DNA of 64,000 bases, taken from assembly GCF_020745735.1 (NCBI RefSeq), contig NC_083413.1:97932409-97996408 (forward strand), in the 5' to 3' direction. Under the pieces are notes generated by a model. The model saw nothing but the letters and a program-made list of their open reading frames with translations, was not told the origin of the DNA and did not search any database. This document shows positions 9,945 through 62,191 of the stretch, piece by piece. Made by a program: the position numbers and the translations under genes. The stretch is from Hemiscyllium ocellatum (lineage: Eukaryota). Every line of letters starts with the position of its first letter. Position 1 is the first letter of the stretch.

Positions 9945-10150
9945 CGGGATTGAGCGATAAGTATTGGCCGGGATATAATCTCCTCACTTTCATTCAAAAT
10001 AATAAGGGTCCCTTTAGAGGGCAGAGTGGCTTTGGTTTAATGCCTCATATACATCTGATGTATAGGATTATCTCAGCACTGCACTGCTGTGGCAGCATCA
10101 ATTAGTCTATTCTAAACCCGATGGTAGATCTTGAACCCTCCGACTCAAAG
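9945..10150 (+). mobile_element. Ancient Deu-domain SINE-like remnant
   Basis: gataagtattggccggga...gagggcagagtggctttggtttaatgcctcat...tcagcactgcactg resembles the DeuSINE core from memory; not searched. Confidence 0.45.
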
Positions 10151-12083: not shown

Positions 12084-12365
12084 ATGTCATGTGGTATAAA
12101 GAATATGCCAGCTACATTTCAAAGACTAACCAATGAAGTAATTTCTTCATTACCCAATTGCGTGGTACACATTGATGACCTGATTTTTAGTCACACATGG
12201 AAGAAAAATTTGCAGAATTTCTCAAAGTTATTCATTCGACTTTGGGAGGCAGGCTTGGTGATAAACCTGGCTGACAGCGAATTCAAGGAAACACAAATCA
12301 CTCTCCTGGGCCATGTTATTGAACATGGCCAGATGGCCCCATCCACCAAAACAGCAGTACGACTA

Positions 12366-12544
12366 CAAAACAATCTTGATTATCCAAATGAGATGGGTGG
12401 GGATAACTAATTGTTCGGATAACTGATTGTTCAGATAATGCATTGCTCAGATAACTGATCTGATTGCAAACAAAGGACCTTGAGATCTTGTTTGGATAAT
12501 CTGAAATTTGGATAATTGACATTCGGATAACAGGGGTTGTTCTG
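12366..12544. mobile_element. Small Tc1/pogo-type MITE-like element
   Basis: Imperfect terminal inverted repeats (caaaacaatcttgattatccaaat vs reverse complement cagaacaacccctgttatccgaat), internal ggataa repeats, TA at the left flank. Confidence 0.45.
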
Positions 12545-41065: not shown

Positions 41066-41781
41066 TGTGAAAGCTCAGCCACGTTACCTGGCTTTCTGTG
41101 AACTCCTGTCCAAGAACAGAGAACCACCACTTAATTAATACACTTCAACAGTACTGTTTTTATTCAAGACTATCAGTATATGAATATACTAACAAGGCTT
41201 GGGAGAGAAAAGCCACTTAGACCACACTGGGTACTAAAGAGTGGATTCTCTCACCGTTGATAGGGAAAGTTGTTACATTTATACATAACTTCTCACGCAA
41301 TACAGAGTCCAGTGTCATTAAGCTATCGCAAAGTATATTAATCAAAGTATACTTAATTGTAAGCTTACACATCAAAACATGCTCTAAATCTAACACACAG
41401 ACACCAGCACCCATCTGGTTAAGATATTAACACTATCTTTAAAGTCAGACATTAACTCCCATTATTTTTCTAACTCTTCAAAGCAACAGTCAAATCTCAG
41501 AGATGCTCTTTAAATGTAAACATTCAAACCTCATTAATGTGTTACAGCTAGACCGTAAGGCACCAGTACTCCTCTGATGGCTGCCCTTTGACCTAGTGCT
41601 GGTACTATGTCATTCTCAGATCTGTGGGATTGGACATGTTTACCCAGCCTGTGCAAGTTGCTGTATTAGCAATTTGTTCGCTCAGGATGCTGGGCAATAT
41701 AGCCAATGTGCTTCAGCCATTTTAGTTAACATTCTAAGCTCCATTTTCTATATGGTCACTATATCTATTTCCAATTTATCA
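41066..41781 (-). mobile_element. ERV 3' LTR (716 bp)
   Basis: Minus strand TGATAAATTGG...TTCACA; TATAAA at 41278-41283 and AATAAA at 41159-41164; 7 substitutions versus the 5' LTR. Confidence 0.98.
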
Positions 41782-41794
41782 TTCCTCCCTTTTT
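41782..41794 (-). promoter_or_regulatory. Polypurine tract
   Basis: Minus strand AAAAAGGGAGGAA immediately before the 3' LTR TG. Confidence 0.93.
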
Positions 41795-41812
41795 ATCATT
41801 TCATGATAACCT

Positions 41813-44194
41813 TCAGATATTAATACGTTGAAGTCGAGCAAACTCTTTTTCTGTTTCTACATCTAAATTGCCATCAGTCAAAAGTGTAGGTGTCAATCTT
41901 TCCTCCTGTGTCCATATCGGGCTTGTCTCCTTTTTACATCGGCGTCGTGCGGGACAAGTTTGACAACTTCTCTTAATAAGGGCCCAAGCGATTCGAATAC
42001 TAATACAAATGCCAAGAATGATGGCCAGAATGGAGAGAATGTCCAGCCCAATAGACTTTAGCCATCCCAACAGCTGACACAGTAGGTTCCACCAGGCACA
42101 GGCCTCCTTTGAGTCTGTGTGGTCCCGATCATATGCTTTAGTGGCAACATCGTTAATTAGTGAAGTGTCATTATATACAGCCGAGCTCTCATCCTCAATA
42201 TAGGTACAACACACCGGGCCAATAACTGCACATGCTCCCCCTTGGCTTGCTAAGAGATAATCTAAAGCCATCCTATTCTGTAAGGTCATCATTCGCAGGG
42301 CAGTCTGCTCGTGTTCCAAATGATCCAGGGCATCAGCAGTGGCCTTAGCTATTTCCTCAAGCTCGTGACTGAGATCACGAATCTGGTCCAGGGCTTGCAT
42401 GACCCCATAATTGGGCAGAAGGGCGCCAAAGAATCTGCTCCAAAATGTCTGTTGGTGGAACAGATCTCTCCTGCCTCGAGCATGAGGTTTGTAATTTGAA
42501 TTAAGATCATGCCACTTCTTCCATTCGCTGTTAACCTCTGGGGTTGAATTCAATAACCGGAATGCTGGGAGGTGATATATCAGCGCACAGGTGCCCTTAA
42601 AGTTAATAGGTAGGTATTCATAGGCTGTGTGATTGCATAACCAAAATGTCCCGTTAAGTGCAGGCGTAATACAGTGTTTAGCGTGGAAGAGGACAGCACC
42701 CATGCGGCTTGTAGGGGCGTCGGGACGAGTCTTTTCATTAACACAAAGGTCCCAATCGTCCTCCGGGAGGCCCCCAAAGGGGTCTGACCTGGTTTGATCA
42801 TGAGATATTATTACCTGGCATCTACTGTCTTCTAAGTCTCCCATGGCATGTTTTCCTGTATCACTATGAAAGCACCATTTAAATTCTGGCACCACCGCTA
42901 CTACAAAACCTTTTGGTACCACTTGCCAGGTGTCATAGCAACGCCTGAGGTAACCATACTGGATCGGGTATTGGTCAGAAATGTCTCTATAGGGAATAAT
43001 TTTTGGGGTTTGTTGGGTACGCCTGTAGGTAAGACTGCATAATTCATCCTGACCAGTAGGGGCCGCCATCATGAGGAATCCGGACCCTACCGAGTGTGGG
43101 CCTGGGACACATACTACTTTGGTATTCTTTCCTTCATCAGTCTGATTGTCAAGATGAGTTTTTACTGTTTCAAGGAAGCCAGTAAAGGTGTTGCCGGTAA
43201 GGCTCGTTGCTTCCGGTAAATTGCTTCTTTTCTTTCGGTGGGTCTTAAGAAAACGGTGCAGTGTGCGGACGAGATTTTTTAATTTTAAGTAACTGGGAAA
43301 GTTGAACAAATAGTCTCTAGGGTCCGCTGCAGTATTATTCACAAAGGCATGGCAGCACGTGCGTGTATCATTTAAGTACGTATAGGTATCCTCGGATTTG
43401 GTGCCATTTCCTCGTAGGCATACATACATTACTTCCTGGCAGATGCCAGTGTTATGAATTGTTATATTACTGGGACATTCTGTCCTAGCATCCAGAGTTG
43501 TAATATTATATCCAGGGCACCACTGTTGAAGTCCTGTTAGGTTTTGCAAATGCTGTACGCAATCCTGTGACCAGGCAATATTTTGGACAACTATGCTGCT
43601 ATAATTAGAAGTGGCCTTAGAGTAGTCAGGAAAACCGACCAAGGGACAAATTGTCTGGTTAAACCCACTGTTACCTGGGCCATGACGATCACACGTGGCA
43701 TTCACTCTGACCTGAACTATTCTTGTGGGGCCTGTGTTATTCAACATTTTGCTATTCTCCTGTTTCCATACCCACCAATCCCTGATGAGATTGCAAGGGG
43801 TAGCTAGGGTCTGACTTGGTTCACTTATATTATTAGACTGGGTACCTATCACTCTGGACAGTGATAAACTCATTAGGGGGGTGCTAATAGTCATATTGTC
43901 ACTCATAGTACTCACGAGATCCCTCGGGACTATTACTGTACCATTGGGGCCATCAGAAGCAATACGTGGTGCCATACTCACAAAACCTTTAGTCATTTTA
44001 GTAGTAACATCTGTAGAGTGTGAAGTCATCACGGGGGTGCCTGTTTTTATCCACGTCTCCGCGGTGGCTGCACTAGAGTTGCTTGTAGGCCCTTGGAGAG
44101 TAGGGGGTGCACCGCTGGTGGTGTTACTGGTCTGCATTGATGTCCCTGTCACTGTTAGGCAGAGGCCAAAGAGAAAGAGGGTAGGTTTCATCAT
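41813..44194 (-). CDS. env: Envelope glycoprotein, intact 793 aa
   Basis: Signal peptide; furin motifs RKKR (aa 320-323) and RGRR (aa 573-576); NGTFWLC...LP.NF.GTC; fusion peptide FFGALLPNYGV; ISD LQNRMALDYLLASQGG; CAVIGPVCC (CX6CC); TM helix. Confidence 0.98.
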   Translation of the reverse strand: MMKPTLFLFGLCLTVTGTSMQTSNTTSGAPPTLQGPTSNSSAATAETWIKTGTPVMTSHSTDVTTKMTKGFVSMAPRIASDGPNGTVIVPRDLVSTMSDNMTISTPLMSLSLSRVIGTQSNNISEPSQTLATPCNLIRDWWVWKQENSKMLNNTGPTRIVQVRVNATCDRHGPGNSGFNQTICPLVGFPDYSKATSNYSSIVVQNIAWSQDCVQHLQNLTGLQQWCPGYNITTLDARTECPSNITIHNTGICQEVMYVCLRGNGTKSEDTYTYLNDTRTCCHAFVNNTAADPRDYLFNFPSYLKLKNLVRTLHRFLKTHRKKRSNLPEATSLTGNTFTGFLETVKTHLDNQTDEGKNTKVVCVPGPHSVGSGFLMMAAPTGQDELCSLTYRRTQQTPKIIPYRDISDQYPIQYGYLRRCYDTWQVVPKGFVVAVVPEFKWCFHSDTGKHAMGDLEDSRCQVIISHDQTRSDPFGGLPEDDWDLCVNEKTRPDAPTSRMGAVLFHAKHCITPALNGTFWLCNHTAYEYLPINFKGTCALIYHLPAFRLLNSTPEVNSEWKKWHDLNSNYKPHARGRRDLFHQQTFWSRFFGALLPNYGVMQALDQIRDLSHELEEIAKATADALDHLEHEQTALRMMTLQNRMALDYLLASQGGACAVIGPVCCTYIEDESSAVYNDTSLINDVATKAYDRDHTDSKEACAWWNLLCQLLGWLKSIGLDILSILAIILGICISIRIAWALIKRSCQTCPARRRCKKETSPIWTQEERLTPTLLTDGNLDVETEKEFARLQRINI

Positions 44195-44229
44195 TTCACT
44201 TTTCTTCAGTCTTCCTTCCTTAGTGGCAC

Positions 44230-44250
44230 CTATGTCAAAGGAAGAGAAAA
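44230..44250 (-). promoter_or_regulatory. env splice acceptor
   Basis: Minus strand ttttctcttcctttgacatag|gtgcc between the pol stop and the env ATG; no ATG in the 35 nt before env. Confidence 0.75.
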
Positions 44251-44278
44251 TACATACAGCAGTAGCTGCCCCTTATTC

Positions 44279-47200
44279 TCATTCCTCCCCAATAAGCTTG
44301 CAATGGTGTAGGCTGATCCAGGCTTTACGACCCTCAACCTTAACAGCAGTAGGGGTGGTAAGGAGGACTTGGAAAGGGCCCTCCCACCGGGGTTCCAGGC
44401 CGTGCTTTCTGGCAAAGTTTTTGATCAATACAAAGGTGCCAGGTCGGATATTTGGGGGCAACGGCAAATCCGACCGCAAAGGCCTGGCAGCTTTAACCAT
44501 CGCATGGTTCATGCGTAAGGCATCAGTTAAGGATAAAACATAGAAGATCATCCCATCTGACATCTGATGTATGTCAACAGGAGAATCAGAGAAGTCAGAG
44601 CTAAAGGGAGTGCGGAGGGGCCGCCCATACAAAATCTCGGCAGGGGAGAGACGGTGGGCTCCTGCCGGGGACACCCGGAGTTGAAACAAGGCAATGGGCA
44701 AATTTTGGAGCCACGAGAGAACGTTGTCAGCTGACAGTTTGGCCAATTTAGATTTCAAGGTCTGATTAGCCCGTTCCACCACTCCCGCGCTCTGAGGGTG
44801 GTAAGCACAGTGGAACTGCTGCTTGATATTAAGAACTTTACAAAGTTCTTGACTAACAAAGGCCACAAAATGAGAGCCGTTATCGGAACTGAGCGTCCGC
44901 GGCACACCAAATCTAGGAATAATCTCCTTGAGTAAAGTCTTAACAACAGTGTCAGCCTTGTTATCGGCTGCAGGATAAGCCTCAATCCATTTACTAAAAA
45001 CATCAACAATAACTAAAACATATTTACACTTGGCCGTTCTGGGTAGCTCAATGAAATCCATTTGCAACGTGTCGAAGGGGCCTTCAGGCAGCGGGGTTCT
45101 ACCCTGTTCACAGGGGACCCCCTTGCCGGGGTTATGCTGCATGCATGTCAAGCATTTTTTAGTTTGTGCTCTAGCCAATTGCAGAACACTGGGATGCCAC
45201 CAAGATTCCCAGACTAAATCTGCAGTTTGTCTAGCCCCACAGTGTGTTAAGTGATGGACAACATCAACCACCCAGACGGCTAAAACATTAGTCATACACA
45301 CCTGGCCTGCTGGGGTTTTCCAAAGACCATCAACGTCCTTGAAACATCCCAGATCAGTCCATTCATGAAGTACATTGTCAGGGGCGTCCCCCTGTAAAGC
45401 AACAATATCAGCGGTGGAGGGAGGCTGCTTGTCAGGAACTGAGGCCCTAATAGATTTCCTCTGAACCATCATTAAGGAGCCAGGGAGCTCCGTAGCCTGT
45501 TTAGCAATTTCATCTGCCTGTTTATTTCCCATAGAAACCGGAACTGTTCCGGCAGAGTGCGCGGAACATTTAATAATGGCCAATTCGCGAGGACTTTGAA
45601 TGGCCTGTAACAAATGAATGACTTCCTCCCTGTGTACGATAGGGGTCCCCGACGAGGTGAGGAAACCTCGATTTTCCCATAGTGTCCCAAAATCATGGGC
45701 AACCCCGAAGGCATACCTAGAGTCAGTATAAATATTAGCTGTAACTCCGGAGGCTAGCTCACATGCCCTAGTTAATGCAATTAATTCAGCTTTCTGAGCG
45801 GATACCGCAGGTATGAGGCGACACTGTTCCACGATCCTGCCCTCCGCATCCACTATACCATATCCAGCCACCCTGTCTCCATTCTTGTTTACAGAGGAGC
45901 TACCATCCACGAACAAAGTGACATCGGGATGTGGGAGGGGGCGGTCAGTCAAGTCAAGTCTGGGCCTAGTGTCTAGCATGATTTTGTGGGCGCATTCGTG
46001 AACGGGGACAGGACTCTCAGCAGGAATATCAGACATAAACGTTGCCGGGTTAATACTTGCGTAATATTTGAAGGTCAACAAGGGGTTCCCTAAAAGGAAG
46101 ATTTCATAGCGAGACTGGCGGGCAGATGTCAGGTGTTGCGTCTGCATTTGGCCCAACATAGAAACTACTGCATGAGGACTAAAAACAGTGACCGGTTGTT
46201 GGAGCGTTGTGTTTGCTGCAGCCAACACCATCAAATACGTAGCAGCCAGTTGTTGAATACAATGAGGCTGACCACTAATCACAGAATCCAACTTAGTAGA
46301 AAAATATGCCACCGGCCTACGGGTACCTCCATGGTCCTGCGTCAAAACCGCGACCGCGCAGCCCGAGGTAGTGGCCACAAAAAGCTGAAAAGGCCTATCG
46401 TAGAGGGGTCTCCCTAAAGCAGGAGCATTGATTAGCGCCTGCTTCAACTGGTTAAATGTCTCAAGTGCAACTTCGGATAGAGTGAAGGGCTGTCGCTCAG
46501 TGGTAAAGGGAGTGAGAACCTTTACTAAGGGGGCAATGTTAGGAATCCATTGTCTGCAGAAGTTAACTAATCCCAAAAACCGTCTCATCTGCTTAGCCGT
46601 GGTAGGGGCCGGAGTATTGACAATCGGACCAATTCTATCCGGGGCCAACCTACGCTCATGCGCTGAAATTTCTACCCCCAGGAATTTAATTTTACGTTGG
46701 CCGATGACAACCTTGTCATAATTAGCTACATAACCTAACTCGGCCAGCTTGTTGAGGAGATGCTTAGTGTCCTTTTCATTCGACAGGGCATCAGGGCTGG
46801 CAAGTAAAAGGTCATCCACGTATTGTACCAGGGTGGATCGACAAGGCAAATGGATCTGGTCTAATTGCCTTTGGAGGATCTGAGAAAATATTGTGGGGGA
46901 ATCACAGAATCCCTGTGGTAGTCTCGTCCATGTATATTGCTTGCCCAAAAAGGTAAAGGCAAACAAATGTTGGCTGTCAGGGGCTAGGGGAATAGCAAAA
47001 TAGGCATTTTGTAGGTCTATCAAGGAGAACACACAGGCCTCTGGAGGGATTGCCGCAAGTATGGTGGCAGGATTAGGGACGATAGGGTGCAAGGGCGCCA
47101 CGATTTTGTTAATTTCATGGAGATCCTGAAGTAAGCGATACTCGCCAGGTTTACCTGGTTTAGCTACGGGAAGGATAGGGGTATTTGCTTGTGATTGACA

Positions 47201-47674
47201 CTCGATCAGAACTCCCTGAGCCAGTAGGTGATCAATCAGGCCACGTAGAGGGGCCACAGCTTGACTCTTGATAGGATACTGCTTAACACTGGGGATCCGT
47301 GCTCCTGGCCTTAACATGACACTGACAGGGGCAACCCCCTTCGCCAACCCCACGCAGTACTTGTCGGTGGCCCAGACCGCAGGGTCAATCTCGACCTGGC
47401 TGTAACCACCTTCATGCTGCCGTAGCGTGGATAATACTGGTTCAGGATGGTCAAGGTAGACGATAGAAAGGCCGTCTCTTAAGTCCTGATACCCCATTAC
47501 ATTCGGATCTGACAAGGCTACAGCCTGTGCTACCATGGGTCCTAAGTCCTTTGCTACATATCCCTTGTGAACTAAGACAGTTTGATGTGGGGCAATACCG
47601 GGCTCTTGGTCCCACAGCTCTGGTGGCACCCAAACGTACCAAGCCGTACCCTGTTTCCCATTAACTTTAGCCAA
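44279..47674 (-). CDS. pol: pol open segment (1131 codons): second half of a 2H-like domain, RT, RNase H, integrase
   Basis: LPQGFCDSP, QYVDDLLL; FVDGSS/AELIAL/YTDSRY/ADEIAK; HHLTH-CLTC, QMDF, SDNGSHF with E exactly 35 residues later, GPF motif. Confidence 0.98.
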   Translation of the reverse strand: MAKVNGKQGTAWYVWVPPELWDQEPGIAPHQTVLVHKGYVAKDLGPMVAQAVALSDPNVMGYQDLRDGLSIVYLDHPEPVLSTLRQHEGGYSQVEIDPAVWATDKYCVGLAKGVAPVSVMLRPGARIPSVKQYPIKSQAVAPLRGLIDHLLAQGVLIECQSQANTPILPVAKPGKPGEYRLLQDLHEINKIVAPLHPIVPNPATILAAIPPEACVFSLIDLQNAYFAIPLAPDSQHLFAFTFLGKQYTWTRLPQGFCDSPTIFSQILQRQLDQIHLPCRSTLVQYVDDLLLASPDALSNEKDTKHLLNKLAELGYVANYDKVVIGQRKIKFLGVEISAHERRLAPDRIGPIVNTPAPTTAKQMRRFLGLVNFCRQWIPNIAPLVKVLTPFTTERQPFTLSEVALETFNQLKQALINAPALGRPLYDRPFQLFVATTSGCAVAVLTQDHGGTRRPVAYFSTKLDSVISGQPHCIQQLAATYLMVLAAANTTLQQPVTVFSPHAVVSMLGQMQTQHLTSARQSRYEIFLLGNPLLTFKYYASINPATFMSDIPAESPVPVHECAHKIMLDTRPRLDLTDRPLPHPDVTLFVDGSSSVNKNGDRVAGYGIVDAEGRIVEQCRLIPAVSAQKAELIALTRACELASGVTANIYTDSRYAFGVAHDFGTLWENRGFLTSSGTPIVHREEVIHLLQAIQSPRELAIIKCSAHSAGTVPVSMGNKQADEIAKQATELPGSLMMVQRKSIRASVPDKQPPSTADIVALQGDAPDNVLHEWTDLGCFKDVDGLWKTPAGQVCMTNVLAVWVVDVVHHLTHCGARQTADLVWESWWHPSVLQLARAQTKKCLTCMQHNPGKGVPCEQGRTPLPEGPFDTLQMDFIELPRTAKCKYVLVIVDVFSKWIEAYPAADNKADTVVKTLLKEIIPRFGVPRTLSSDNGSHFVAFVSQELCKVLNIKQQFHCAYHPQSAGVVERANQTLKSKLAKLSADNVLSWLQNLPIALFQLRVSPAGAHRLSPAEILYGRPLRTPFSSDFSDSPVDIHQMSDGMIFYVLSLTDALRMNHAMVKAARPLRSDLPLPPNIRPGTFVLIKNFARKHGLEPRWEGPFQVLLTTPTAVKVEGRKAWISLHHCKLIGEE

Positions 47675-47840
47675 TCATGTAAATATATACTGATTGCCTA
47701 GCAAGGATTCAAACTTTTCCTCCTTTTTCTAGTCAACTCCTGACTTATCGTAACAGAGCGTTACATGAGGAGGGTATCGAAAAGGGGTCTGGGTGTCACT
47801 GTCAGAGTCAGGGAAAAGTGCCCAAAAGCGTGCTGGAATG
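47420..47840 (-). pseudogene. 2H-phosphoesterase-like domain between PR and RT, broken by TAG (47729-47731) and TGA (47675-47677)
   Basis: HxT motifs PPHVTL (His codon 47765-47767) and APHQTV (47585-47587), 60 codons apart in the pro-pol frame. Domain limits approximate. Confidence 0.72.
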
Positions 47841-48211
47841 CGGACGGAGTACTGGCCTTTCTGTGTCAAGCGGATCTCTTCTGGGGTGCACTTGATGATC
47901 ACGCCAAGACCACCAAGAATATCTCGTCCTAGGATGTTGATACCAATGTGGGGGTTAATTACAAATTCATGCTCCCATTCGTCATTTTCCCAGCTAACTT
48001 TCAATGGTTTAGTAATTTGATAAGGCACGAACTTGCCCTCAAACCCCAATAAACGTTGAATCTTGTTACCACAAGGATAGTGGGTCCCTGCTAGTGAAGA
48101 TGCGCATGCTCCTGTGTCAACCAAAAAGCGTTCAGGGGTACTTTCAATTAATAGGGTCACAATGGGCTCTGGAATGGCGTTGTGAGAAAAGACAGGCAGC
48201 ATCTCATCATA
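47729..48211 (-). CDS. pro: Aspartic protease, in frame with gag directly after the gag TGA
   Basis: FLVDTGA and NILGRDIL motifs; CAG-TGA-TAT-GAT-GAG-ATG junction. Confidence 0.95.
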   Translation of the reverse strand, partial: YDEMLPVFSHNAIPEPIVTLLIESTPERFLVDTGACASSLAGTHYPCGNKIQRLLGFEGKFVPYQITKPLKVSWENDEWEHEFVINPHIGINILGRDILGGLGVIIKCTPEEIRLTQKGQYSVRIPARFWALFPDSDSDTQTPFRYPPHVTLCYDKSGVD

Positions 48212-50158
48212 TCACTGTTGTGGGGACGGTGGGGGTGGTAGTATATTACTAAACGGATTTTGGCCGCCATAGCCACCTCTGGGGGTGCCTTGAGCACCCC
48301 GGCCCCTTCCTCCTCTGCTCCCTCGACCTCGTGGCTGTTCAGGGCAATCTTGTTTCCAATGGCTAGGATTTCCACAGTTAAAACAACCCTTCCCTTTAAA
48401 GTTATTCGTGGCCCGAAATGTCTGGGGCTGACTGGGATAACCCGAATTCCAGAGATTGGGAGTCCACGGCTGGCCACGCCAGTCAGGGGGACCTAATGAG
48501 TAAGGACCACCCCTAGCTGGACCATTTGGGTGCTGCATCGCGTGAAACTCGCCCTTTTGGTTTTGCCAGCCTGGGACATAAAAATCCGGTTCCAGCTGAT
48601 AGCCTCTATTGTCAGACTGCAGCTGGGGACCGGGTAATCTCCACAGCCCTTGCTGCTGGGTCTGCTGGGGAGGGGTGGGAGGTTGCCGCAAGGGGGCCAT
48701 GGTATTTTGATCACTTTCCCGTACAACAAATTCAGATTTAATAGGTTTTTCGGCCTTAGGACCGTCACCCTCACCCCATAATGCTTTAATTGCCCTAGCT
48801 GTATCACCCTGTGAGGAATTGATCCAATTTAAGTTGTTAGTTTTCCATCTATCTTGTGTAGGTTTAGGCAAAGTATTCATCAAGAGACTATTATACTGTT
48901 GTGAGACCGCCCCCGCTCCCAAAGGGAAAAGAGGGTCCCCAGAATATGTGCCATACGTTTCATTAAACCTCTGTAGGTATTCCTCAGCACCCTCCCCCTT
49001 TTTTGGTTTTAGATCAATGATTTTTGCGAAGTAAACCGGTTTTCTGAGGACCTGCCGCATTGCTTCTTTAATTTCCTGCTCCTGTTGTTGTTGGTTCGGG
49101 TGTTGTGCTGTAAAAGCAGTCCAACTGTTGGCACCAGGGGGCATATCTAATATTTCTAAAAATTTTGTCCACTTCAAGCCAATAAACACAACCCTCAAAA
49201 AATTCCAGATATCTTCTCCCACTGCCCCGTAAGCCTGCCAAATGCTTTCAACTGATTCACACTATTTTTGTGGATCCTTATCTTTGTCAGGGAGATTCAT
49301 AGTCAGTGCCAAAATTTCCTGCGGTTTCCATGGCGTAAAAATTTCTAGGGTAGGAGGGTGACGAACCGCAGCGACAGGAGGGACAGCATTCGGCTGGGCG
49401 GGGACTCTTACCCGTCCCGCTTGAGGGTTAGGAACAGTACGCATAGGGAACATGTGACCTGAGGGTTCCTCTATCTCTGAACTGTCATCGTCAGCCTCCT
49501 CTGTCCAAGGGTAGGGCAATTGCTGTTCGGGTTCACACTGTGGTGGAGGCCGATATCCTTTTTTACCTGTGCTTGGGGTAAAACTCCTTTCACTACGTGC
49601 CTCCTGGGGTGCTGTACCCGATGGAGGGGGTTGGGGAGGAGATTCCACATTCGTAGAACTAATTCCCTTATCCTCCCATCCTGCACCCAGCCTCAGGTCT
49701 GACAATGCCGTCTCCACCGCTTGGTTGGCCAACCGTTTGTTCTTATTAATATTTTCATCAAAATTTGCACATGCAACCTTGAGCTCATGGAGGGTCAAAG
49801 GAAGCCCATCCTTAGTGACACTTAACCCCCTTTTTGTAGCATTATGTAACCAACTGTTGTAAACCTTCTGCTCGTGTTGTTGTTTAGCTTCCTCTTTCTT
49901 TCTAAAGCATGCATCTCTTAGTTTAGCCATAATTTTCTTACCCTTCTTTCCCCCTGTTCCCTCTTTCCATACTAACTCCGTAGCTCTTTTTACAATCTCC
50001 AATTTCCACGTACCCCCTGCAGGCCATTCATCAGGTCCCAATTTTTCTGTTAGCCATCCTGACAATTTCCTGAGTGACTGTGCATCCTCAGGATCTTCTG
50101 CGCAGACTGTTACAATTAATGATCCCGAATCCTCACATTTATCCATAAACTGTCCCAT
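48212..50158 (-). pseudogene. gag: gag (649 codons including stop) with one premature TAG at 49262-49264
   Basis: The two ORF-track pieces share one frame (QK*CESVESIWQAYGAVGED). MGQ start, MHR-like KPKKGEGAEEYLQRF, single CFNCGNPSHWKQDC zinc knuckle. Confidence 0.96.
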
Positions 50159-50205
50159 AATATTCCCTAAACTTTCCCTAACCTTTTGTGAGTGTTGCGT
50201 TTATT

Positions 50206-50384
50206 AGATCCTGCTCAAGGGACTTTAAACCCTCTCACACATACGTACCTCGGTGCTTTTATGAGGACTCTAACCCCATGGGACTTTAAACCCGTACGTA
50301 TCTAAACAACTACTTGTGAGCGGTGCTTTTATGAGATCCTGCTCAAGGGACTTTAAACCCACTCACACATACGTACGTATCTAA
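50206..50384 (-). repeat. Mosaic direct repeats in the ERV 5' leader
   Basis: 43-bp repeat at 50206-50248 and 50334-50376; gggactttaaaccc x3; cggtgcttttatgag x2; also at 1015-1193. Confidence 0.9.
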
Positions 50385-50395
50385 CTATTCTTACT

Positions 50396-50404
50396 TCTTA
50401 CCGC
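50396..50404 (-). promoter_or_regulatory. Candidate major splice donor
   Basis: Minus strand GCG|GTAAGA between the PBS and gag; an alternative GAC|GTGAGT lies at 50587-50595. Confidence 0.55.
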
Positions 50405-50673
50405 GCTCCCAGCACCTTTTTATTCCTACCTTCTATAGCACTCCCAGTGCTTTTGTGGTGGTCCCTTTAAAAAGCTGTTCACTGGTTCGTTCTCGATCCC
50501 GTCCGGTAGCAGCTCCTGCTGCGGTGAGTTGGATCCAGGTCCGCCCCTGACTTGAGGAGACACTAGTCGCGAGTCCCAAACGGTATACTCACGTCGTAGT
50601 TGGGCCCATGTCCACCTTGCCACAGCAAGACCGTGTCCTGTTCAACCGTCACCAGGAGCCGCCTTCCGTTGGG

Positions 50674-50691
50674 ATCCCACCGCTGCCACCA
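50674..50691 (-). promoter_or_regulatory. Primer-binding site, tRNA-Leu
   Basis: TGGTGGCAGCGGTGGGAT; 18-nt complement of the tRNA-Leu 3' end. Confidence 0.93.
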
Positions 50692-50694
50692 AAA

Positions 50695-51410
50695 TGTGAA
50701 AGCTCAGCCACGTTACCTGGCTTTCTGTGAACGCCTGTCCAAGAACAGAGAACCACCACTTAATTAATGCACTTCAACAGTACTGTTTTTATTCAAGACT
50801 ATCAGTATATGAATATACTAACAAGGCTTGGGAGAGAAAAGCCACTTAGACCACACTGGGTAATAAAGAGTGGATTCTCTCACCGTTGATAGGGAAAGTT
50901 GTAACATTTATACATAACTTCTCACGCAATACAGAGTCCCGTGTCATTAAGCTATCGCAAAGTATATTAATCAAAGTATACTTAATTGTAAGCTTACACA
51001 TCAAAACATGCTCTAAATCTAACACACAGACACCAGCACCCATCTGGTTAAGATATTAACACTATCTTTAAAGTCAGACATTGACTCCCATTATTTTTCT
51101 AACTCTTCAAAGCAACAGTCAAATCTCAGAGATGCTCTTTAAATGTAAACATTCAAACCTCATTAATGTGTTACAGCTAGACCGTAAGGCACCAGTACTC
51201 CTCTGATGGCTGCCCTTTGACCTAGTGCTGGTACTATGTCATTCTCAGATCTGTGGGATTGGACATGTTTACCCAGCCTGTGCAAGTTGCTGTATTAGCA
51301 ATTTGTTCGCTCAGGATGCTGGGCAATATAGCCAATGTGCTTCAGCCATTTTAGTTAACATTCTAAGCTCCATTTTCTATATGGTCACTATATCTATTTC
51401 CAACTTATCA
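50695..51410 (-). mobile_element. ERV 5' LTR (716 bp)
   Basis: Aligns without gaps to 41066-41781; TATAAA at 50907-50912 and AATAAA at 50788-50793 on the minus strand. Confidence 0.98.
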
Positions 51411-51870
51411 ATAGAGATGTACAACTTGGAAACAGATCTTTCAGTCTCACTTGCCCATGCTGACCAGCTATCCTAAACTAATCTAGTCCCATTTGCCAGT
51501 ACTTGGCCCATATCCCTCTTCTAAACCCTTCCTATTCTTATACACACTCAGATGCCTTTTAAATGTTGAAATTGCACCAGCCTCCACCACTTCCTCTGGC
51601 AGTTCGTTCCATACACACCATCCTCTGCATGAAAAAGTTACTCCTTAGGTACTTTCAACTTTTTCCCCTCTCACTCTAAACCTATACTCACGAGTGTAGG
51701 TTTAGATGAGACTCCACCCATCTCAGGGAAAAAAACCTTGCCTATTCACTGTATCCATGCCTCTGATGATTTTATAAGCCTTTATAAAGTCACCCCTCAG
51801 CCTCCAACGCTCCAGAGAAATCAACCCCAGCCTATTCAGCCTCTCCCTATATAACTCTACATGGCTGTGA
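51411..51870 (-). mobile_element. CR1 3' fragment into whose tail the ERV integrated (also 2220-2679)
   Basis: Continues the left flank agagtcatag as agatgtacaacttggaaacag...; CR1-like 3' sequence. Confidence 0.7.
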
Positions 51871-52446
51871 ATATGTATAAGCCTAGAGGATTGGCTTCAT
51901 AAATCATGTTGCATTTAATATAAATGTTGTTTTTTTAATTATCATTTAGTTTAAAATGGAGGACGGGTGCCTTTTCAATTTATGGTGTGTATGGAAAGAC
52001 CTGGAAAATAAACTACAACAAAAAAATGGACAAAATGTTATTGTACTACGGATCATCTCACCATATCATTCGTGTAAAAAATAATTCCCTGTTTTGACCG
52101 TGAAGTTAATAGAGTCTATTAATTAGTCCTGTGTTTGTAATAATTTTCATCTATCTGTCATTCTACATTTAGTTGTTGTAGTTAATGTGTGGATTACTGC
52201 ACTTCTCTAAAAATTCAAAACAAAATAAAGTAAAACTGCAAATTAAATATTGCATCTAATTACGACAAAAAAAATAGCAATTTAATGACATGAAATTGGA
52301 AAGGAATGTTGAAATATAGCCAGTTCTGAGGACTACAAGCGGTTGCAAGAGATCATTAATTAATTTACGGTATGTTCAAATAATTAGCAAATGAAGATCC
52401 ACACAGATAAAGGTAAGGTATTACATCTTGGTAGGAATAATGTGCA

Positions 52447-53132
52447 AGGAGAAAGTGAGGTCTGCAGATGCTGGAGATCAGAGCTGAAAATGTGTTGCTG
52501 GAAAAGCGCAGCAGGTCAGGCAGCATCCAAGGAACAGGAAATTCGACGTTTCAGGCATAAGCCCTTCATCAGGAATGAGGAAAGTGTGTCCAGCAGGCTA
52601 AGATAAAAGGTAGGGAGGAGGGACTTGGGGGAGGGGTGATGGAGATGTGATAGGTGGAAGGAGGTCAAGATGAGGGTGATAAGCCGGAGTGGGGTGGGGG
52701 CGGAGAGGTTAGGAAGAAGATTGCAGGTTAGGAGGGCGGTGCTGAGTTCGAGGGATTCGACTGAGACAAGGTGGGGGGAGGGGAAATGAGGAAACTGGAG
52801 AAATGAGTTCATCCCTTGTGGTTGGAGGGTTCCCAGGCGGAAAATGAGGTGCTCTTCCTCCAATCGTCGTGTTGTTATGGTCTGGCGATGGAGGAATCCA
52901 AGGACCTGCATGTCCTTGGTGGAGTGGGAGGGGGAGTTAAAGTGTTGAGCCACGGGGTGGTTGGGTTGGTTGGTCCGGGCGTCCCTGAGGTGTTCTCTGA
53001 AACGTTTCTCAAGTAGGTGGCCCGTCTCCCCAATATGGAGGAGGCCACATCGGGTGCAGCGGATGCAATAGATGATGTGTGTGGAGGTGCAGGTGAATTT
53101 GTGGCGGATATGGAAGGATCCCTTGGGGCCTT
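52447..53132 (-). mobile_element. Penelope-like element, copy 2 (2 bp shorter); hammerhead core at 52541-52576
   Basis: Same as 3256-3943; TSD at 52434-52446 and 53133-53145. Confidence 0.9.
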
Positions 53133-56100
53133 GGAATAATGTGCAGGTCACTTATTCAAAGATGCACGTCTAAGTGAGGGAGACAAACAAAGGGATTTCA
53201 GACAATTACATCAGTCACTAACAATTTCACCACAGGTTCCAAAGGCCATAAAAATGTAAACAAAGTACTAAGTTTTATCTCTAAAGGGATAGATTCGAAA
53301 GTAGGGTCACTATAAAAATTTGGTTGACGATAATTAAGAGTATTGTTTGCAGTTCGAGTTGACATATTATAGAATGTATGAGACAGAGTGAAGAGATGAT
53401 TTATGAGAATGCTCCACAAGTTTCTGGCTGTGTATATCCAGGAAGAATTGTTGTGCTGTTCACTTCTCTCTTGAAAAGAAGGCTGACAGTTCGAAAATTA
53501 AGAAAAGTTTTGAAAAGAGAAGGTACAAAGAAAACATTTCACTGTGGGATAGAATATAACTCGAGGCTGTCAATATAAGACGGTACCTCAAGAAGTCCAA
53601 AAGGGAATTCAGAGGAAACCTCTTCACTGAAAGAATGATGAGAATGGGGAATATGTGACCAGACGGAATAGTTGAAATCAATAGTTTAGATGTATTTCAA
53701 GGAAACTAGGCGAGCACTTGGAAGGGATGGGAATAGAGAATTACAACGGGCGATTTAGATGAGGAAAGATGTGAAACACCTTGAGTGGAACATAAGCACT
53801 GGCATGAACTGATTGTGCCAAATGGTCTGTTTTTCCTCTGTAATCCTACGTAGAAAATCACCATTGCATGAAACAAAAAGTGCATTATGAACATTTAGAA
53901 GAGTTATAAAGTTTCTCACAAAAAGTCTCAAGTATCCAGCATTGAATGTAAATGATTTTATCACATGGCCACACTTCACGATTTGCTTGATAGCACTGAA
54001 ACAGCAGTAATCACATTCCTCTTACTAGGAGTAGGAGTAACCCATCGTCCTTGCACCAATTGGGGGATCTTAATGACTTATTAATGGCCTCAGTAGGAGC
54101 TGCCAACCTGGTCCTGGGAATGTTGTGAACACTCTAGCCCTCACGGCTTCTTTCACTCACTTACTCTGATTTCCAGTTCCTGTAATGATCACCACCATGG
54201 ACAGGGGACTGTTCCAGTATGCAGATGGGATACCCTGTTGTGAGCCACAAGGTACTTCATTAGGAGGGACACCCTCCAGGTGTGTCACTAGGATGCAGGG
54301 GGAGGTCTCCCACACAATGGAGGACCTTACTGCTAATAAACTGCCAGCATTGGCGGGAACACACTCTACATTGACCACGTGAGTGGTCATCCTTTCCCGA
54401 ATTTGGGATCAATAACATACTAGGGAGGTGGAAACTCCTTCCTTCCCTTCTCACCTTCCACCCTATTATCCACCTAATGACCTTGCAGCCTGTCCCTAGA
54501 GGGCTGATAGAGCCCAGTCCCATTCCAATATTCAAGAACATGAAGAGCTGGCAACCTGGTCAAAATTGACAAAGCTTAACACAAACAGTCTTGGCCTGAC
54601 CGTCAAACTCTAAAGTGTAACTTGAGATGAGTTCAATAAAAATGGCAGAAGTACAGAAACAACCACTTCCATCTGTCAGAAACACATGTCTATGAATGGG
54701 AACGGGTGGTCCGCTATTTGGAATGGAGCAGTGCATTTGAAAAGTGAATGAGGAGCAGCAATGTTTTGTGATGTACGTGTGCACAGTCTGAAGCTGTTTG
54801 CTGATTCAGTTTTGCTAAAGGTTTGGCAGATACATTCCAATGAGAATCAATTAAATCTGCCAAAGTGGATATTAATACTCACATTTATGAGATGCTTTAA
54901 CATAGAACATAGAAAAATACAACACAGAACAGGCCCTTTGGCCCATGACAGTGTGCCGAGGTCTAATCCTAATGTAAAATATAACAACCTACACACCCCT
55001 CAACTCACTGCTAAACATGTGCATGTCCAGCAGTCACTTAAATGTCCCTAATGACTCTGCTTCCACCACCACCGCTGGCAATGTATTCCATGCATTCACA
55101 ACACTCTGCATAAAGAACCTACTCTAATATCTCCTCTATACCTTTCTCCTAATATCTTAAAACTATGACCCCCTCGTACCAGTCAATCCTGCCCTGGGGA
55201 AAATTCTCTAGCTATTGACTTTATCTATTCCTCTCATTATTTTGTATACCTCAATCAGGTCTCCTCTCTTCTTCCTTCTCCAGAGAGAAAAGTCTGAGCT
55301 TATTCAACCTTTCTTCATAAGGCAAGCCCTCCAGTTCAGGCAGCATCCTGGCAAACCTTCTTTGCACCCTCTCCAAAGCCTCTATCTATTTCTTATAGCA
55401 GGGTGACCAGAACTGGACACAATTTTCCAGGTGTGGTCTCACCAGGGACTTGTAGAGCTGTAGCAAAACCTCGCTGCTCTCAAACTCGATTCCCCTGTAA
55501 ATGAAAGCCTAAACACCATATGCTTTCTTAACAACCCTATCCACTTGGGTGGCAACTTTGAGGGATCTATGTACTTGCACACCCAGATCCCTCTGTTCCT
55601 CCACACTGCCAAGAATCCTGCCTTTAACCCTATATTCAGCATTCGAGTTTGACCTTCCAACCTGGAAAAGGATGCACCGAACGCCAAACAGGAGAAGGTT
55701 GTTGGCATGTATCGAAGAGTTAGGACCAATGACATGAAGCTGGCTTTTAAGCAAGCTTTCAAAGTGAGAATGAGTACCAGAGGGCATGTAAGGAAGTTTA
55801 TCAGTAAAGTACAGCTAATTCAGGGGACTTGACCATACTCATGGACAAAAGCAATCAGAGACCCAAAGAACAGAGTGTGTATATAAGGGGTACAAGAGAC
55901 AGCGTGAAACAAGGCCTTGAAGAATTTAGAGATAGACATAAGTTTAAACTCAATACATTCGATGATAAAGAGCCAGTTAAGATCTCAGTCCTTTCTCTAT
56001 AAGCACAAGTTTAAGTTGACCAGTCTTGTCCAGGCCAGCATTAAATGGGATGTTTATTTGCACTGTGCACACCTCATGATTTCACAAGATATCTCAGTTT

Positions 56101-59100
56101 TGTAAATGCAATAGAATGCATTATCCACCGTTTCAGCAATTCATTAAATAGAAGTTGACAGAAATAAACAACTTTCCAAAGCTGTCTTTCAACAGCCAGA
56201 CTGATACAATATTCAAAAAGGATCTGCATGTACAAAGTGGGCTTGTCAGGGGGTTTAATCATTTCACATTCGAAAACTAGATTCCATTTTAATTATATCA
56301 GCTGGATGTTGGATGCTCCATCAACAAAAGGTTCCCATATTCAAACGGTTATTTGCAAATATAGTAATTGGATATTGCTATAAAATAGGACATGCTTTTT
56401 TTTTGTCTTGCATACACCAGGATAGCTGCAAAGATTTTGATATTAAGGGAAACAACATTTTACACTGAACAAGAAAAGAATTCTGATGCTTTGGAAAGTG
56501 CACAATAATTGATCAAGATGTCCCCAATGGAAATGGACTGGTCAGATGGTGACAGACAGTTAACAGCTAAACTTTGTTAAGTTTACAATTGGCAGGTTGC
56601 CTGAGTGGTCAAGGTATTGCCCTGCCAAATGAGTCCGAGAATGGCCATCACCAATTTAGTCGAATCACAACAAGCATTGGCTGTTAACTGCCAATCATCA
56701 CCTGGTCCATTCTCCATGCCTTTACCAATCAGCACTCATTACCCAGACAGATTAAATGCTTTCTCCCTTCCCATTGGTATTCTTGAGAGTGTCCTGATAA
56801 GTACAATACTAAAGACTTAAATAAAAAAACACTTTATTTCCATCAATACTCAAATGTCCATGCTGCCCCAGCTGGCAGAGGGGAAACATCACTACAATGT
56901 ATCAGGCCGACAATGAACTGGTAAAGTTCTGCACTGGCCTCAGAGGGAAACCAGCAACAATGTCCTTGTGGAGACATTACTTTACCTTTGATCCTATACA
57001 GCAACAATTTCAAAGCCATTGAGGAACAGGAATAAATAGAAACAAACTACATGCACATACACACAGCATACTGTTATGTAAAGTAATAGAGAGAAATGCT
57101 GCACGAACAGGAAAATTAATTGTTATTCTGAATAGTGAATATGGCACCAAAAACACCCTTGTGATAATGACAGTTGGAAAATCTGCCCACATTGGTTTGC
57201 AGCAGTTGAAGAGTTGCTCATTCTGTTCTGGGCCCCACTCAGTTCCTGCACCAGTATGTGACCATAGATTCAGATTGTTTTTAAAGGCAGATATCAATAT
57301 GCAGTTGCACAGTGGCAGGAGTACAGCTATCCTATGGACAGCACTAAAGAGATCTCACACACATTGGCTCTTTAATAAAGAAATGGGGCAAACCTCAGAG
57401 ATAGGGAAATGTAAATAAATGAACCACTAACAAGATTTCATCCAATTCGATAGTAACTGATACCTGATCACCAAATTCAGCTGCCACTTGAAAGGATGCA
57501 AGAAGCCCCAAAAGGAGATACTCCACATTTCACTTGATTCTGTGTCACATTATCGCAAGAGAGCTTTGTAGTTGCCTTTTAGCAGACATTATTTTTATCC
57601 ATAAACCACATCGGTTTATCAGAGAAGCATTGGTTCCAATCATAGATCAGAACTGAATAGTGCAGAACCACATCATAACCCATCTTGAGAAGCTGTGTCA
57701 GTGGGTGCATGGGTTTGCAGTGCCTCTGTGTTCTGAGCTTCGGCCCCAATCTCTCTCTGTTCCCTAGTTTTTCTGCTAAGTTGCGGTTCCAGTCAGTTTG
57801 TATTTCATCATTGTCCCAGATTATAGAGGGTTCCGTATCAGTGAGTTCACCAGGATAGCCCGTTGGGTAAATCAGCAGTGGCTCCACTGAAAAGGCTTTT
57901 AAATCCTGAGGCTCATAGAACAGCTTTTAGTTATCCCTATTAATTGACCTATTAACAATTAACAACGTTATATTTGATCTGCTTTATTTCTCATTACTGA
58001 CTGCAATGAATTTACTTCATGGGATACAGAAACTCACCAATGTGAGTAAAAACCTCTTAAACTTTGGGCAAAATCCAGGCTATTGACTAAAGAGAATAAA
58101 CTCCATACAATAATGCAACAAAGGAAAGCAAATTGAAGTCAAATGATGCACAGGTTTGATGAAGAGCAAAACCCCCTCTACCCCAGCAGGAAGGCAAGTA
58201 GAAAAGTTGTGCATTTATGTAACATCTTAATGCAATCTCAGAGTATCCTAAACATCTCTTTCCAGATCTCTGAAACAAGTGCAGAACCCCTGGGGCCACT
58301 GTCAACTACATGCTATCAAACCCATGGAATCATAGACGGAAATATCAGCATGTGCCCATGTAACAGTTTAAAATGTGTGTTTAATACCTTCGCTCGAGTA
58401 ACTCGCAAAATTGTTTCGCGGTATGAACAATAAATGGGAATAGGTCACTTGGCCCTTCGAGCCTGGTCCACTATTCAATAAGATCCTGACTGACCCGATT
58501 TTAATAAGCTTATAAAACATTCAGCTGACAATATCCCACTTTAGCTTCTCTTATTCTATCATTTTAGTATATTCTACTACATATCTATTCTAATCTGGAG
58601 AATAATTCTCCTGCTGTTAATCACTGATCCACACTGTACTGCTCTCCTCATGCACTGTTCTTTTCCTCAGCCTATCCTTTAGACAAGATAAAATACATTG
58701 GAACAGACTCCACCGTTTGCTGGTACTTGACACAATGAGAACGATTGAAATATTTCAATACACTCCTTTGGTGGAAAATATAATTTGTTTTAATCATTTA
58801 AAACTGGTTCAATTTATTTTATATTTGCATTGAATGGTATATTAGTTTGATCCAGATGTTAGTACAAAGTGAAATATTACAGCACTGAGCTTTGTCTCTT
58901 CTCATTTGATGGAAGTTGGGAAGGAGTGTTTTCTTACAGCAGAGAGTGAAACATGAACAACCAAGTTGAGTAATAATACATGCAGGTTCTGACAAAGCTA
59001 ATTTTCAATCAGAGATGTTCTATACAACAACTGAAGTACTTTTGATCATGGAGTCACATGTCAGAAATGTGATATCTAATTTGTGTCCCATGAGAAAAGC

Positions 59101-60568
59101 AGGAAGGAGATGATGACCAGATCATCTGCTCATCGGGATTGAGCGATAAGTATTGGCCGGGATATAATCTCCTCACTTTCATTCAAAATAATAAGGGTCC
59201 CTTTAGAGGGCAGAGTGGCTTTGGTTTAATGCCTCATATACATCTGATGTATAGGATTATCTCAGCACTGCACTGCTGTGGCAGCATCAATTAGTCTATT
59301 CTAAACCCGATGGTAGATCTTGAACCCTCCGACTCAAAGATCAGCACAATAGTCAGTGACACCTGAGCAACACCCAATACTCTGACAGGCGGCTTATTAT
59401 TTACATCCCCAGGGATTAATGAAGCAATTCAGGGAAATTGCATTGATTCTGTATGAGATACAAAACAGTCCTCAAAGGGGAGAATGATAGTCTCCCTAGC
59501 CCTAGATCAGTAGGCTTAAGTTCCTAGATTAGACTTAGTAGGTTTAAATTCCTGTCCTACCTATTCCAGAGGCGTGTCATACATCGCTGAACATTTTAAT
59601 GTTAAAAAAGGAAAGCCTCTTCAACCAATGGGCTGTTGTCATTTGGAAAGTGCTAATTAGGAATCAGCACTTTGAGTCACCTTTGCTGATTCCCTGTGTG
59701 TTATACGGGAGTCAGTAATTTCTATCAGTGTCCACCGTTACAGCTACAAAAAGTCCTCTAATATCTCTCCTCAATGGGTCATTCTTCCCTTTTGAATATG
59801 GGCAGTGAGCACTCCGTCCTATCTCTTCCTTAGCAACAAATGGCTGCCATGCTTCCAGCCTGCTGTCAGCAAGAGGTTAACTTGCACTGTCAAAGTGTGG
59901 CAATACTGAGAATAACCCTCCCCATTATGACCCAGGCTAAGATCACAAGATGCAGCACAAGTCAGTGTTTGTGTCCAGAATTAGATAACCAGGAAGGATG
60001 TTCTCCACGGCTGGGGAGCCCAGAACCAGGGCTCACGGTCTACGGATACTGGCTCGGGCATGTTGGACTGAGATGAGGAAACCTTTCTTCACCCTGACAG
60101 TGGTGACTCTTTGGAATTCACTGTCATAGAAATTGATTGAGCCCAAAATGTAATAGTTTCTTTTTCGGACTAAAGGGATCAAAGCTTACAGAAAGAATGG
60201 TGGAACAGGGTGCTGAGTTGGACAATCAGCCATTGTCATTTTGAACAGCAGCGCATGCTTAAGGGGCTGAATGGCTCACTGTTCCACCCATTTTTGTGAC
60301 CATTCTGTGGCTTGAAGAGATGTGTTGTGTTCAAAAGCTATTTTGATAGGGAAAAAAAAAGAGAATGTGTTACTGTTTACAACACAGAGTGACGAAACAA
60401 TTTCAGATGATTGTGAATTGGTCTCCTCAAATTACATTGATCAATGAGGAAGTTCTGGAAAATTGGGATAAACCACTGAGTTACCAGCCAGTTGAAAATC
60501 GAAGTGACTTGAAAGACTCAGTATAATCACATGGGGAGATATGTGGAAATAACCTGGGAATTACTAAC

Positions 60569-62191
60569 CTAACTACACATAATATTGATTGAGGAAATGC
60601 TGTTCTAATCAAACAACATCCTACAGACTTAACCTTTGGAGGTTAGCACAGATTCAGAAAGAGACTGAACACATGCTGAAAGACAATATAATCAAAATCA
60701 GTCGTATGAATAGAGCTCACCTACATCAGTGGTACCACAGCCAGGTAATATCCAATGATTATATGTGGACCTATGCAAAATCCATGCAGTTACTAAATCT
60801 GATACATGTCCTAAATCAAGTTTGGAAGATCATATTGAGAAGATGGGACAAGCAACTTATATTTCTCAATACGACTTACTCAAAGGATGCTGGCAGCTAC
60901 TTTTATTCAAAAAGGTGAAGACAATTTCAGCCTTCGTGACACCAAAATGCGCTGTACCAGTTTACAGACATAGATTAGATTAGATTACTTACAGTGTGGA
61001 AACAGACCCTTCGGCCCAGCAAGTCCACACCGACCCGCCGAAGCACAACCCACCCATACCCCTAACCTAACACTACCAGCAATTTAGCATGGCCAATTCA
61101 CCTGACCTGCACATCTTTGGACTGTGGGAGGAAGCCGGAGCACCCGGAGGAAACCCACGCAGACACGGGTAGAACGTGCAAACTCCACACAGCCAGTCAC
61201 CTGAGTTGGAAATTGAACCCAGGTCTCTGGCGCTGTGAGGCAGCAGTGCTAACCACTGTGCCACCGTGCCGCCCATGTCATGTGGTATAAAGAATATGCC
61301 AGCTACATTTCAAAGACTAACCAATGAAGTAATTTCTTCATTACCCAATTGCGTGGTACACATTGATGACCTGATTTTTAGTCACACATGGAAGAAAAAT
61401 TTGCAGAATTTCTCAAAGTTATTCATTCGACTTTGGGAGGCAGGCTTGGTGATAAACCTGGCTGACAGCGAATTCAAGGAAACACAAATCACTCTCCTGG
61501 GCCATGTTATTGAACATGGCCAGATGGCCCCATCCACCAAAACAGCAGTACGACTACAAAACAATCTTGATTATCCAAATGAGATGGGTGGGGATAACTA
61601 ATTGTTCGGATAACTGATTGTTCAGATAATGCATTGCTCAGATAACTGATCTGATTGCAAACAAAGGACCTTGAGATCTTGTTTGGATAATCTGAAATTT
61701 GGATAATTGACATTCGGATAACAGGGGTTGTTCTGCATTTGGTAGTACTACGAGTGGGTTTTATCAGAAAGTTGTACGGAATCTTAAAAGTGTGGCTGCT
61801 TCACTCACTGAATTATTGTAGAAATACAAAAAGTTTCAATGGATGGAAAACTGTCAGAAGGCATTTGTCAGCCTGAAAGTTGTGTTAGTTACTGCCCCAA
61901 TATTAATAACCCAAAGCTATTCAAGGTAGTTATCGATGTAAGTGATCAAAGTGTCGGTGCTGTACTCTTACAAGAAAACAACAAGAAGATAAAAAGACTT
62001 ATCAATTTTTTCTCAGGAAGCTAAACATTCATCAACAGGAATATTTGACAGTAGAGAAAGAGACCTTGAGTTTGGTATTGGCGTTACAACATTTGCCAGT
62101 AATGTATCTGAGACAACCATACATATTGATCATAATCCATTAAAGTTTTTTGGGGAAATTTAAGGACAAACATTGTAGACTGGTTTTCGGG
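60569..62191 (+). mobile_element. Gypsy pol remnant with nested SINE (60971-61274) and MITE, copy 2
   Basis: Same as 11380-13000. Confidence 0.8.

Follow-up and report, generated by a model that had tools for sequence, protein, structure and literature searches.

A predicted CNPase-type 2H phosphoesterase domain between protease and reverse transcriptase in an endogenous retrovirus of a shark

The walleye virus carries a 2H phosphoesterase domain in Pol at the same place as the shark provirus described here, between the protease and the reverse transcriptase (RT). The presence of such a domain in fish retroviruses, which an earlier note on this DNA had pointed out, is already in print (PMC9503650, citing Mazumder 2002), and the existence of a retroviral 2H domain is not new; what is particular here is a shortened shark and ray form with an unusual H-Q-T second motif. 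The catalytic mechanism of the vertebrate 2H enzyme CNPase and the role in it of helix alpha7 have been described (PMC4643303, PMC5283653). Of the 2H proteins with known structures, only CNPase is reported to have this helix, which is further reported to hold the nucleophilic water, to exclude nucleophiles larger than water (PMC4643303, PMC5283653) and to block the side used by enzymes that cleave 2-5A (PMC5283653). The physiological substrate of CNPase is still called unknown (PMC3290555), and the families closest to the present domain, those of the CNPase and tRNA-ligase type, heal tRNA ends (PMC5434554).

The window, a stretch of 64,000 nucleotides from Hemiscyllium ocellatum, contains a complete provirus (Table 1). 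As in the walleye virus, the 2H domain lies between protease and RT, where it is also seen in named fish endogenous retrovirus (ERV) proteins, gag and pol form one frame with a stop between them and there is a single CCHC knuckle (for the frame and the knuckle of the walleye virus, PMC3185560). In these features the provirus agrees with the epsilon-like fish ERVs that have a 2H domain in Pol. The gag frame closes with a TGA that is in phase with pro-pol, and 31 of the 35 family copies have a stop in this column, so that Pol is likely to be expressed by readthrough, as is likewise predicted for walleye dermal sarcoma virus (PMC3185560); in a folding model without pseudoknots, no stable hairpin was found 3′ of the gag stop (z -0.04). 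Unlike the walleye virus, the provirus shows no walleye-type accessory genes, resides in a shark, and has a domain with a shorter N-terminal part and the H-Q-T second motif. The "shark" lineage named in the earlier note fits the host, whose last CNP exon is 93% identical to its counterpart in Chiloscyllium plagiosum. With one stop in gag and two in the 2H domain, this copy of the provirus is dead.

Table 1. Features of the provirus, with positions counted from the first letter of the window
Feature	Position	Strand	Remarks
Complete LTR-gag-pro-[2H]-pol-env-LTR provirus	41066..51410	minus	4-bp target-site duplication ATAG
5′ LTR, 716 bp, TG...CA	50695..51410	minus	differs from 3′ LTR at 7 sites
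3′ LTR, 716 bp	41066..41781	minus	
Primer-binding site, starts TGG	50674..50691	minus	
gag, one CCHC knuckle	48212..50158	minus	interrupted by premature stop 49262-49264
gag terminal TGA	48212-48214	minus	in frame with pro-pol
Retroviral aspartyl protease	47894..48169	minus	Pfam RVP, E 2.6e-11
CNPase-type 2H phosphoesterase domain (predicted; model residues 14-154)	47408..47830	minus	carries two premature stops
First motif H-V-T (His35, Thr37), then Tyr40	47759..47767	minus	Tyr40 at CNPase Phe235 position
Premature stop TAG, domain codon 47	47729..47731	minus	
Premature stop TGA, domain codon 65	47675..47677	minus	
Second motif H-Q-T (His95, Thr97)	47579..47587	minus	
Predicted helix 106-119 (AKDLGPMV...), CNPase helix alpha7 equivalent	47513..47554	minus	model
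RT, connection, RNase H, integrase, open frame	44279..47401	minus	Pfam RVT_1 E 6.3e-26 for RT
env, open frame	41813..44194	minus	Pfam TLV_coat, E 7.5e-14

The two HxT motifs that the earlier note had pointed out in the protease-RT interval, PPHVTLCY (His codon 47765-47767) and APHQTVLV (His codon 47585-47587), are exactly 60 codons apart and are followed in the same frame by AKDLGPMV and then EIDPAVWA. The length of about 140 codons given in the note agrees with a modelled domain of ∼141 codons. The two premature stops, a TAG and a TGA, fall between the motifs, and Pfam places the protease (RVP) upstream of the domain and the RT (RVT_1) downstream. Conservation of the catalytic residues, proposed in the note as a check, was examined in 159 related proteins, with residues counted in the 127 that span both motifs: His35 is kept in 123/127, Thr37 in 116/127, His95 in 121/127 and Thr or Ser at position 97 in 123/127. 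Gly110, 15 residues after the second His (His2+15), is found in 121 of these relatives, an aromatic residue (Tyr or Phe; Tyr40 here) at His1+5 in 112, and a Cys directly after the first His, as in the HCT of CNP, in 59. The two conserved His-x-Thr/Ser motifs of the 2H superfamily are present, and the hydrophobic residue that belongs between His and Thr in both motifs is found in nearly all relatives but is replaced here by the Gln that follows His95.

At the DNA level there are 39 matches in the host genome, from which 36 loci were fetched and 35 distinct copies of the window's family compared. Both His are present in 35/35 copies, a count that is weak by itself because the copies are 90-100% identical; each Thr is present in 34/35 and the domain is unbroken in 26/35. 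For estimates of dN/dS, six near-identical copies were dropped and variants occurring in at least 3 of the remaining 29 copies were classed as shared. Shared variants gave a dN/dS of ∼0.32 for the domain, compared with 0.16 for the protease, 0.11 for the RT and 0.28 for part of gag, and private variants gave 0.52-1.07 across regions. The 24 synonymous and 26 non-synonymous shared variants of the domain depart from the ratio of sites (P 7e-5) and from the pooled private variants (P 0.003), with P 0.065 against the private variants of the domain itself; among the shared variants the domain thus shows purifying selection, weaker than that on the RT (0.32 vs 0.11, P 0.004). A chance pair of motifs is ruled out by conservation in related proteins and loci, and the insertion of a host gene peculiar to this copy by the many genome copies and the related proteins. 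No matches came from a word-seeded search in which the query was the stretch of the domain beyond the stops.

The fold of the domain was predicted with AlphaFold from an alignment of 111 sequences (pLDDT 89.6, pTM 0.83); folding of the single sequence was uninformative (pLDDT 37). Both the model and the structure searches, in which 2H relatives were matched, bear out the 2H fold suggested earlier. CNPase, RICH and a fungal tRNA-ligase entry take the top ranks among the Foldseek matches listed. In a search of 48,161 representative chains, CNPase alone reached a Z of at least 8 (13.6, rmsd 4.0, 144 residues aligned), followed by VP3 (6.3), Acb1 (6.2), the Escherichia coli phosphoesterase 4qak (6.0), NS2a (5.0), AKAP18 (4.9) and the penguinpox PDE (4.6), with the plant CPDase within the range 4.6-6.3. 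A second structural comparison gave up to 14.4 for CNPase, 11.3 for goldfish RICH, 10.7 for the fungal ligase 6u05 and at most 6.9 for other non-CNP chains. Among viral structures, ranks 1 and 3 are held by the walleye-virus entries Q9WHI8 and A4GTG3 (E 8e-9 and 5e-6), which we take to be Pol although their table label is "Envelope polyprotein", and RNA-ligase proteins of phages and giant viruses rank above Acb1, VP3 and ORF4b. In the top Atlas match, 11% of the members carry tRNA_lig_CPD. Directly after the second motif, the model has a helix (residues 106-119) in register with helix alpha7 of CNP. The domain is accordingly predicted to fold like CNPase, and its alpha7-equivalent helix would, by equivalence to that enzyme, block the groove for 2-5A.

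Sequence comparison is consistent with this placement. Profile-profile comparison with 25 of the 120 CNPs listed gave E 2.1e-5 and a probability of 77%, with both motifs and the alpha7 Gly (His2+15) aligned in register, although a shallower alignment gave only a probability of 10% and E 0.003. Gly110 corresponds to the Gly at His+15 in 116 of the 116 CNPs counted, and the host CNP exon scored 6.9 bits on the viral profile, the best of 2000 shuffles scoring 4.8. None of the 111 members reached the Pfam cut-off for CNPase (2/111 at E ≤ 0.1, best 0.011); weak matches among them were to 2_5_RNA_ligase2 (11), Acb1 (6) and LigT_PEase (5), and searches of PDB sequences with both the sequence and the profile found no 2H protein. 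CNPase Arg307 has a counterpart in 0/104 members and the position of Val321 is occupied by Lys or Arg in 92/104, for which reason the specificity of the domain may differ from that of CNPase. Phe15 may pair with the ribose-binding Tyr168 of the first CNPase strand by structural start offsets, sequence alignment being unreliable in that strand.

The domain thus shares with the catalytic domains of CNPase and fish RICH (2xmi, 1woj, 2i3e; PF05881) the predicted fold over ∼141 residues, both motifs, the aromatic residue at His1+5 and an alpha7 with Gly at His2+15. It differs from CNPase in having only 12-17% identity to it, in being ∼60-70 residues shorter, and in a His spacing of 60 as against 79-84. 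Since it falls below the Pfam cut-off and lacks Arg307, Val321 and the N-terminal P-loop domain, it is not filed as CNP (PF05881); it is predicted to work like CNPase without being assignable to the vertebrate CNP family. The CPDase of the fungal tRNA ligase Trl1 is the second-best structural family (6u05), and the CPDases of phage and giant-virus RNA ligases are a further likeness, given the matches in the viral structure search and the tRNA_lig_CPD lead. Unlike Trl1 and the viral RNA ligases, however, the provirus has no ligase or kinase domain and hence none that would complete RNA repair.

The best reading overall, to which we give about an even chance, is that of a Pol-borne CNPase-like domain that would convert 2′,3′-cyclic phosphates to 2′-phosphate and 3′-OH ends, most likely healing RNA ends for RT. 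Its two parts are not equally secure: on the modelled fold, the chemistry is probably that of a packaged 2′,3′-cyclic-phosphate 3′-phosphodiesterase, and the purpose, RNA-end healing for reverse transcription, is put forward tentatively, at somewhat under an even chance. The healing role is preferred because the closest families heal tRNA ends and because the domain abuts RT. Metal-independent host RNases leave cyclic-phosphate ends, which cannot be extended by polymerase. Synthesis of the domain would depend on ribosomes reading through the stop of gag, and it would enter virions as part of Pol; cleavage at a site containing Gln would release it from the protease, and at its other end it would remain at or close to the RT N-terminus. 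As in CNPase, His95 would activate the water held by the N-terminus of alpha7 and His35 would protonate the 3′-O, and a 3′-OH would be restored where cyclic-phosphate ends of the tRNA primer, or of genome RNA that has been nicked, are opened.

A Gln-hydrophobic pattern occurs at the protease-domain junction in 18 of 34 rows, compared with 89 of 813 background windows (the pattern having been set post hoc), a hint that it may mark a protease site; Gln at P2 is reported for protease sites of the walleye virus (PMC3185560). Only 13 residues separate the last strand of the domain from the conserved Trp of RT and, with almost no linker after it, the domain may stay joined to RT.

The domain is widespread. 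A protein search of the host genome gave 149 matches among the 150 candidates scored of 445, and in the 60 distant loci fetched, a protease match was nearby in 47 and an RT match in 48. A profile search found 286 clusters at 50% identity that carry the domain. Thirty of the 149 clusters listed were looked up, picked for length or likeness and hence non-random, and 20 could be named: 15 from ray-finned fish, 5 from skates, rays or a catshark, and none from tetrapods, with both motifs intact in 14 of the 15 ray-finned fish representatives. Several other ERV families of the host also have the domain, some in a long form and some in a short one (loci L037-L096), and one domain match (G000:C190:25602619-25602906) lies inside an open frame of 7234 codons and is probably a repeat or artefact.

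Another 40 loci were picked for the likeness of their RT. The domain profile was matched, at least weakly (>8 bits), in 19 of them, and 10 make up a domain-free ERV clade of the same genome in an RT tree (10 rows, support 100; L123-L125, L129, L134, L136, L138, L144, L148 and L149), a natural group for contrast. In this clade the protease is joined directly to RT, the catalytic motif and RT being 95-98 codons apart in the cases found, against 246 in the window's provirus. The domain is lineage-wide, but retroviruses can therefore replicate without it in this host. The RT of the provirus falls in a group of 32 rows (support 99) together with skate proteins and further shark loci; the tree is a quick version, midpoint-rooted and without outgroup or named reference viruses, so that gain and loss of the domain cannot be ordered on it.

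The same chemistry might instead serve an immune role, the main rival reading, which we regard as unlikely. The packaged enzyme would destroy 2′,3′-cyclic nucleotides and cyclic-phosphate RNA fragments that arise in virion digestion, above all guanosine 2′,3′-cyclic phosphate, a TLR7 ligand (PMC12684396). The predicted CNPase-type fold would suit this activity, and an accessory role would accord with the absence of the domain from some ERV clades of the same host and with selection weaker than that on RT. However, the activity would be required inside the endolysosome, where the enzyme would be exposed to proteases, and RNase T2 itself hydrolyses these nucleotides (PMC12684396). A broader proposal, which we think no likelier, is that the catalytic domain of the vertebrate CNP gene, or of its PNK/CPDase forerunner, was acquired early by a lineage of fish retroviruses, which trimmed it, most of all in sharks and rays, and has since kept it in Pol as a virion eraser of 2′,3′-cyclic phosphates; this would be a new class of viral immune evasion, directed against RNase-made RNA ends and against 2′,3′-cGMP as a TLR7 ligand, and would, if true, provide a natural handle on the purpose of CNPase catalysis.

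A little less probable again is the degradation of 2-5A or of cyclic dinucleotides such as cGAMP, in the manner of NS2a, VP3 and Acb1. This was the substrate proposed in the earlier note, whose 2H-fold part stands and whose substrate part is not favoured, the fold grouping with CNPase and the tRNA-ligase CPDases. The domain has in common with NS2a, NS4b, VP3-CTD, AKAP7/18, Acb1 and the avipox PDE a 2H core, the catalytic motifs and a viral context, and the only Pfam match of the window's domain is to Acb1 (E 0.019, 23 residues), although at 15.2 bits this lies below the cut-off of 27. Changes of substrate have occurred repeatedly among the 2H enzymes of viruses (PMC11410667, bioRxiv 2025.08.21.671373), and the Lys or Arg at the start of alpha7 could hold a second phosphate. 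The host genome itself contains OAS-like genes (two loci with 11 exon matches in all), STING and Mab-21 family genes, cGAS not being identified among the latter. The OAS-like loci comprise a cluster of about three genes at G000:C59:18.29-18.36 Mb and a divergent gene at C2:58.01 Mb. RNase L was not detected in the host by Pfam search, which may have missed it; the search found two KEN-domain matches, which we take to be IRE1. A working OAS-RNase L pair is reported from the elephant shark (PMC10400998).

Structural likeness points the other way, with Z 4.6-6.8 to NS2a, VP3, Acb1, AKAP18 and the poxvirus PDE as against 13.6-14.4 to CNPase. Unlike the viral 2′,5′-PDEs and AKAP7-like enzymes (Z 4.9-6.8), the Pol domain has an equivalent of alpha7, the helix reported to close off the 2-5A side of CNPase (PMC5283653), and its Z to Acb1 and the avipox cGAMP PDE is 6.2 and 4.6, respectively. 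For 2-5A, though not for cGAMP, the host range is a further objection: 15 of the 20 named clusters are from ray-finned fish, which have lost OAS-RNase L (PMC10400998), and the upkeep of the domain across fish therefore cannot be due to 2-5A. The CNPase-type fold, the alpha7 equivalent and the intact domains in fish without OAS-RNase L together disfavour the 2-5A or cGAMP reading, the last of them bearing on 2-5A only, and hydrolysis of cGAMP might still occur in a host that has STING.

The short form raises the further question of whether an ancestrally active enzyme has lost or changed its activity and been retained as a folded spacer before RT, which we consider improbable. The Gln96 of the second motif occurs in 35/35 family copies and in 0/127 distant relatives, and the first strand is separated from His35 by 20 residues here as against 34-41 in the other 33 rows selected by pattern, which makes this a very small CNPase-type domain. 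Against lapsed activity, the catalytic His and Thr of each motif have been retained, as have Tyr40, Lys107 and Gly110, the shared variants bear the mark of purifying selection and the model is confident in the region. The shortened form was seen in sharks and rays only: in the short-form RT clade the members with names belong to skates, and the other named short-form proteins are from a catshark and a devil ray. Host CNP binds Gag and thereby prevents some lentiviruses from assembling (activity cited in PMC5434554). A non-catalytic mimic that would compete with CNP or serve as a decoy for it is very unlikely despite the resemblance to CNP in structure and profile comparisons, given that conservation centres on the catalytic residues, identity to CNP is only 12-17% and the N-terminal domain of CNP is missing.

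The preferred reading, a CNPase-like enzyme that would heal RNA ends, changes the order in which substrates should be tested. Should the domain prove active, it would give fish retroviruses a packaged enzyme of a class that no other retroviruses are known to have, and CNPase a counterpart in viruses. Widespread as it is (several ERV families in one genome), the domain has no Pfam annotation. A literature search, covering mostly the main text of open papers, found none that calls it CNPase-like or tests its activity, although Mazumder (2002) may already link it to CNPase. It is unmentioned in the passages searched of PMC8672886, PMC12690878 and PMC3185748, and the string "retro" is absent from the main text of PMC11410667.

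Several further observations concern the provirus and its surroundings. The primer-binding site is presumably of the tRNA-Leu type. The leader before gag contains two 63-nt direct repeats, 92% alike, at 50186-50376. The LTR pair is 99.0% identical (7/716 mismatches), a divergence that corresponds, roughly, to about 22 million years at an assumed shark rate of 2.2e-10 per site per year (PMC4422223). Positions 1-14808 and 49192-64000 of the window are 99.93% identical and represent a tandem duplication of 49,191 bp that includes the provirus; both stops of the domain are also present in the tandem twin copy and in one copy on another contig. Beyond the provirus, a 211-codon open frame on the minus strand (52516-53151) resembles what we take to be the GIY-YIG endonuclease of a Penelope-like element.
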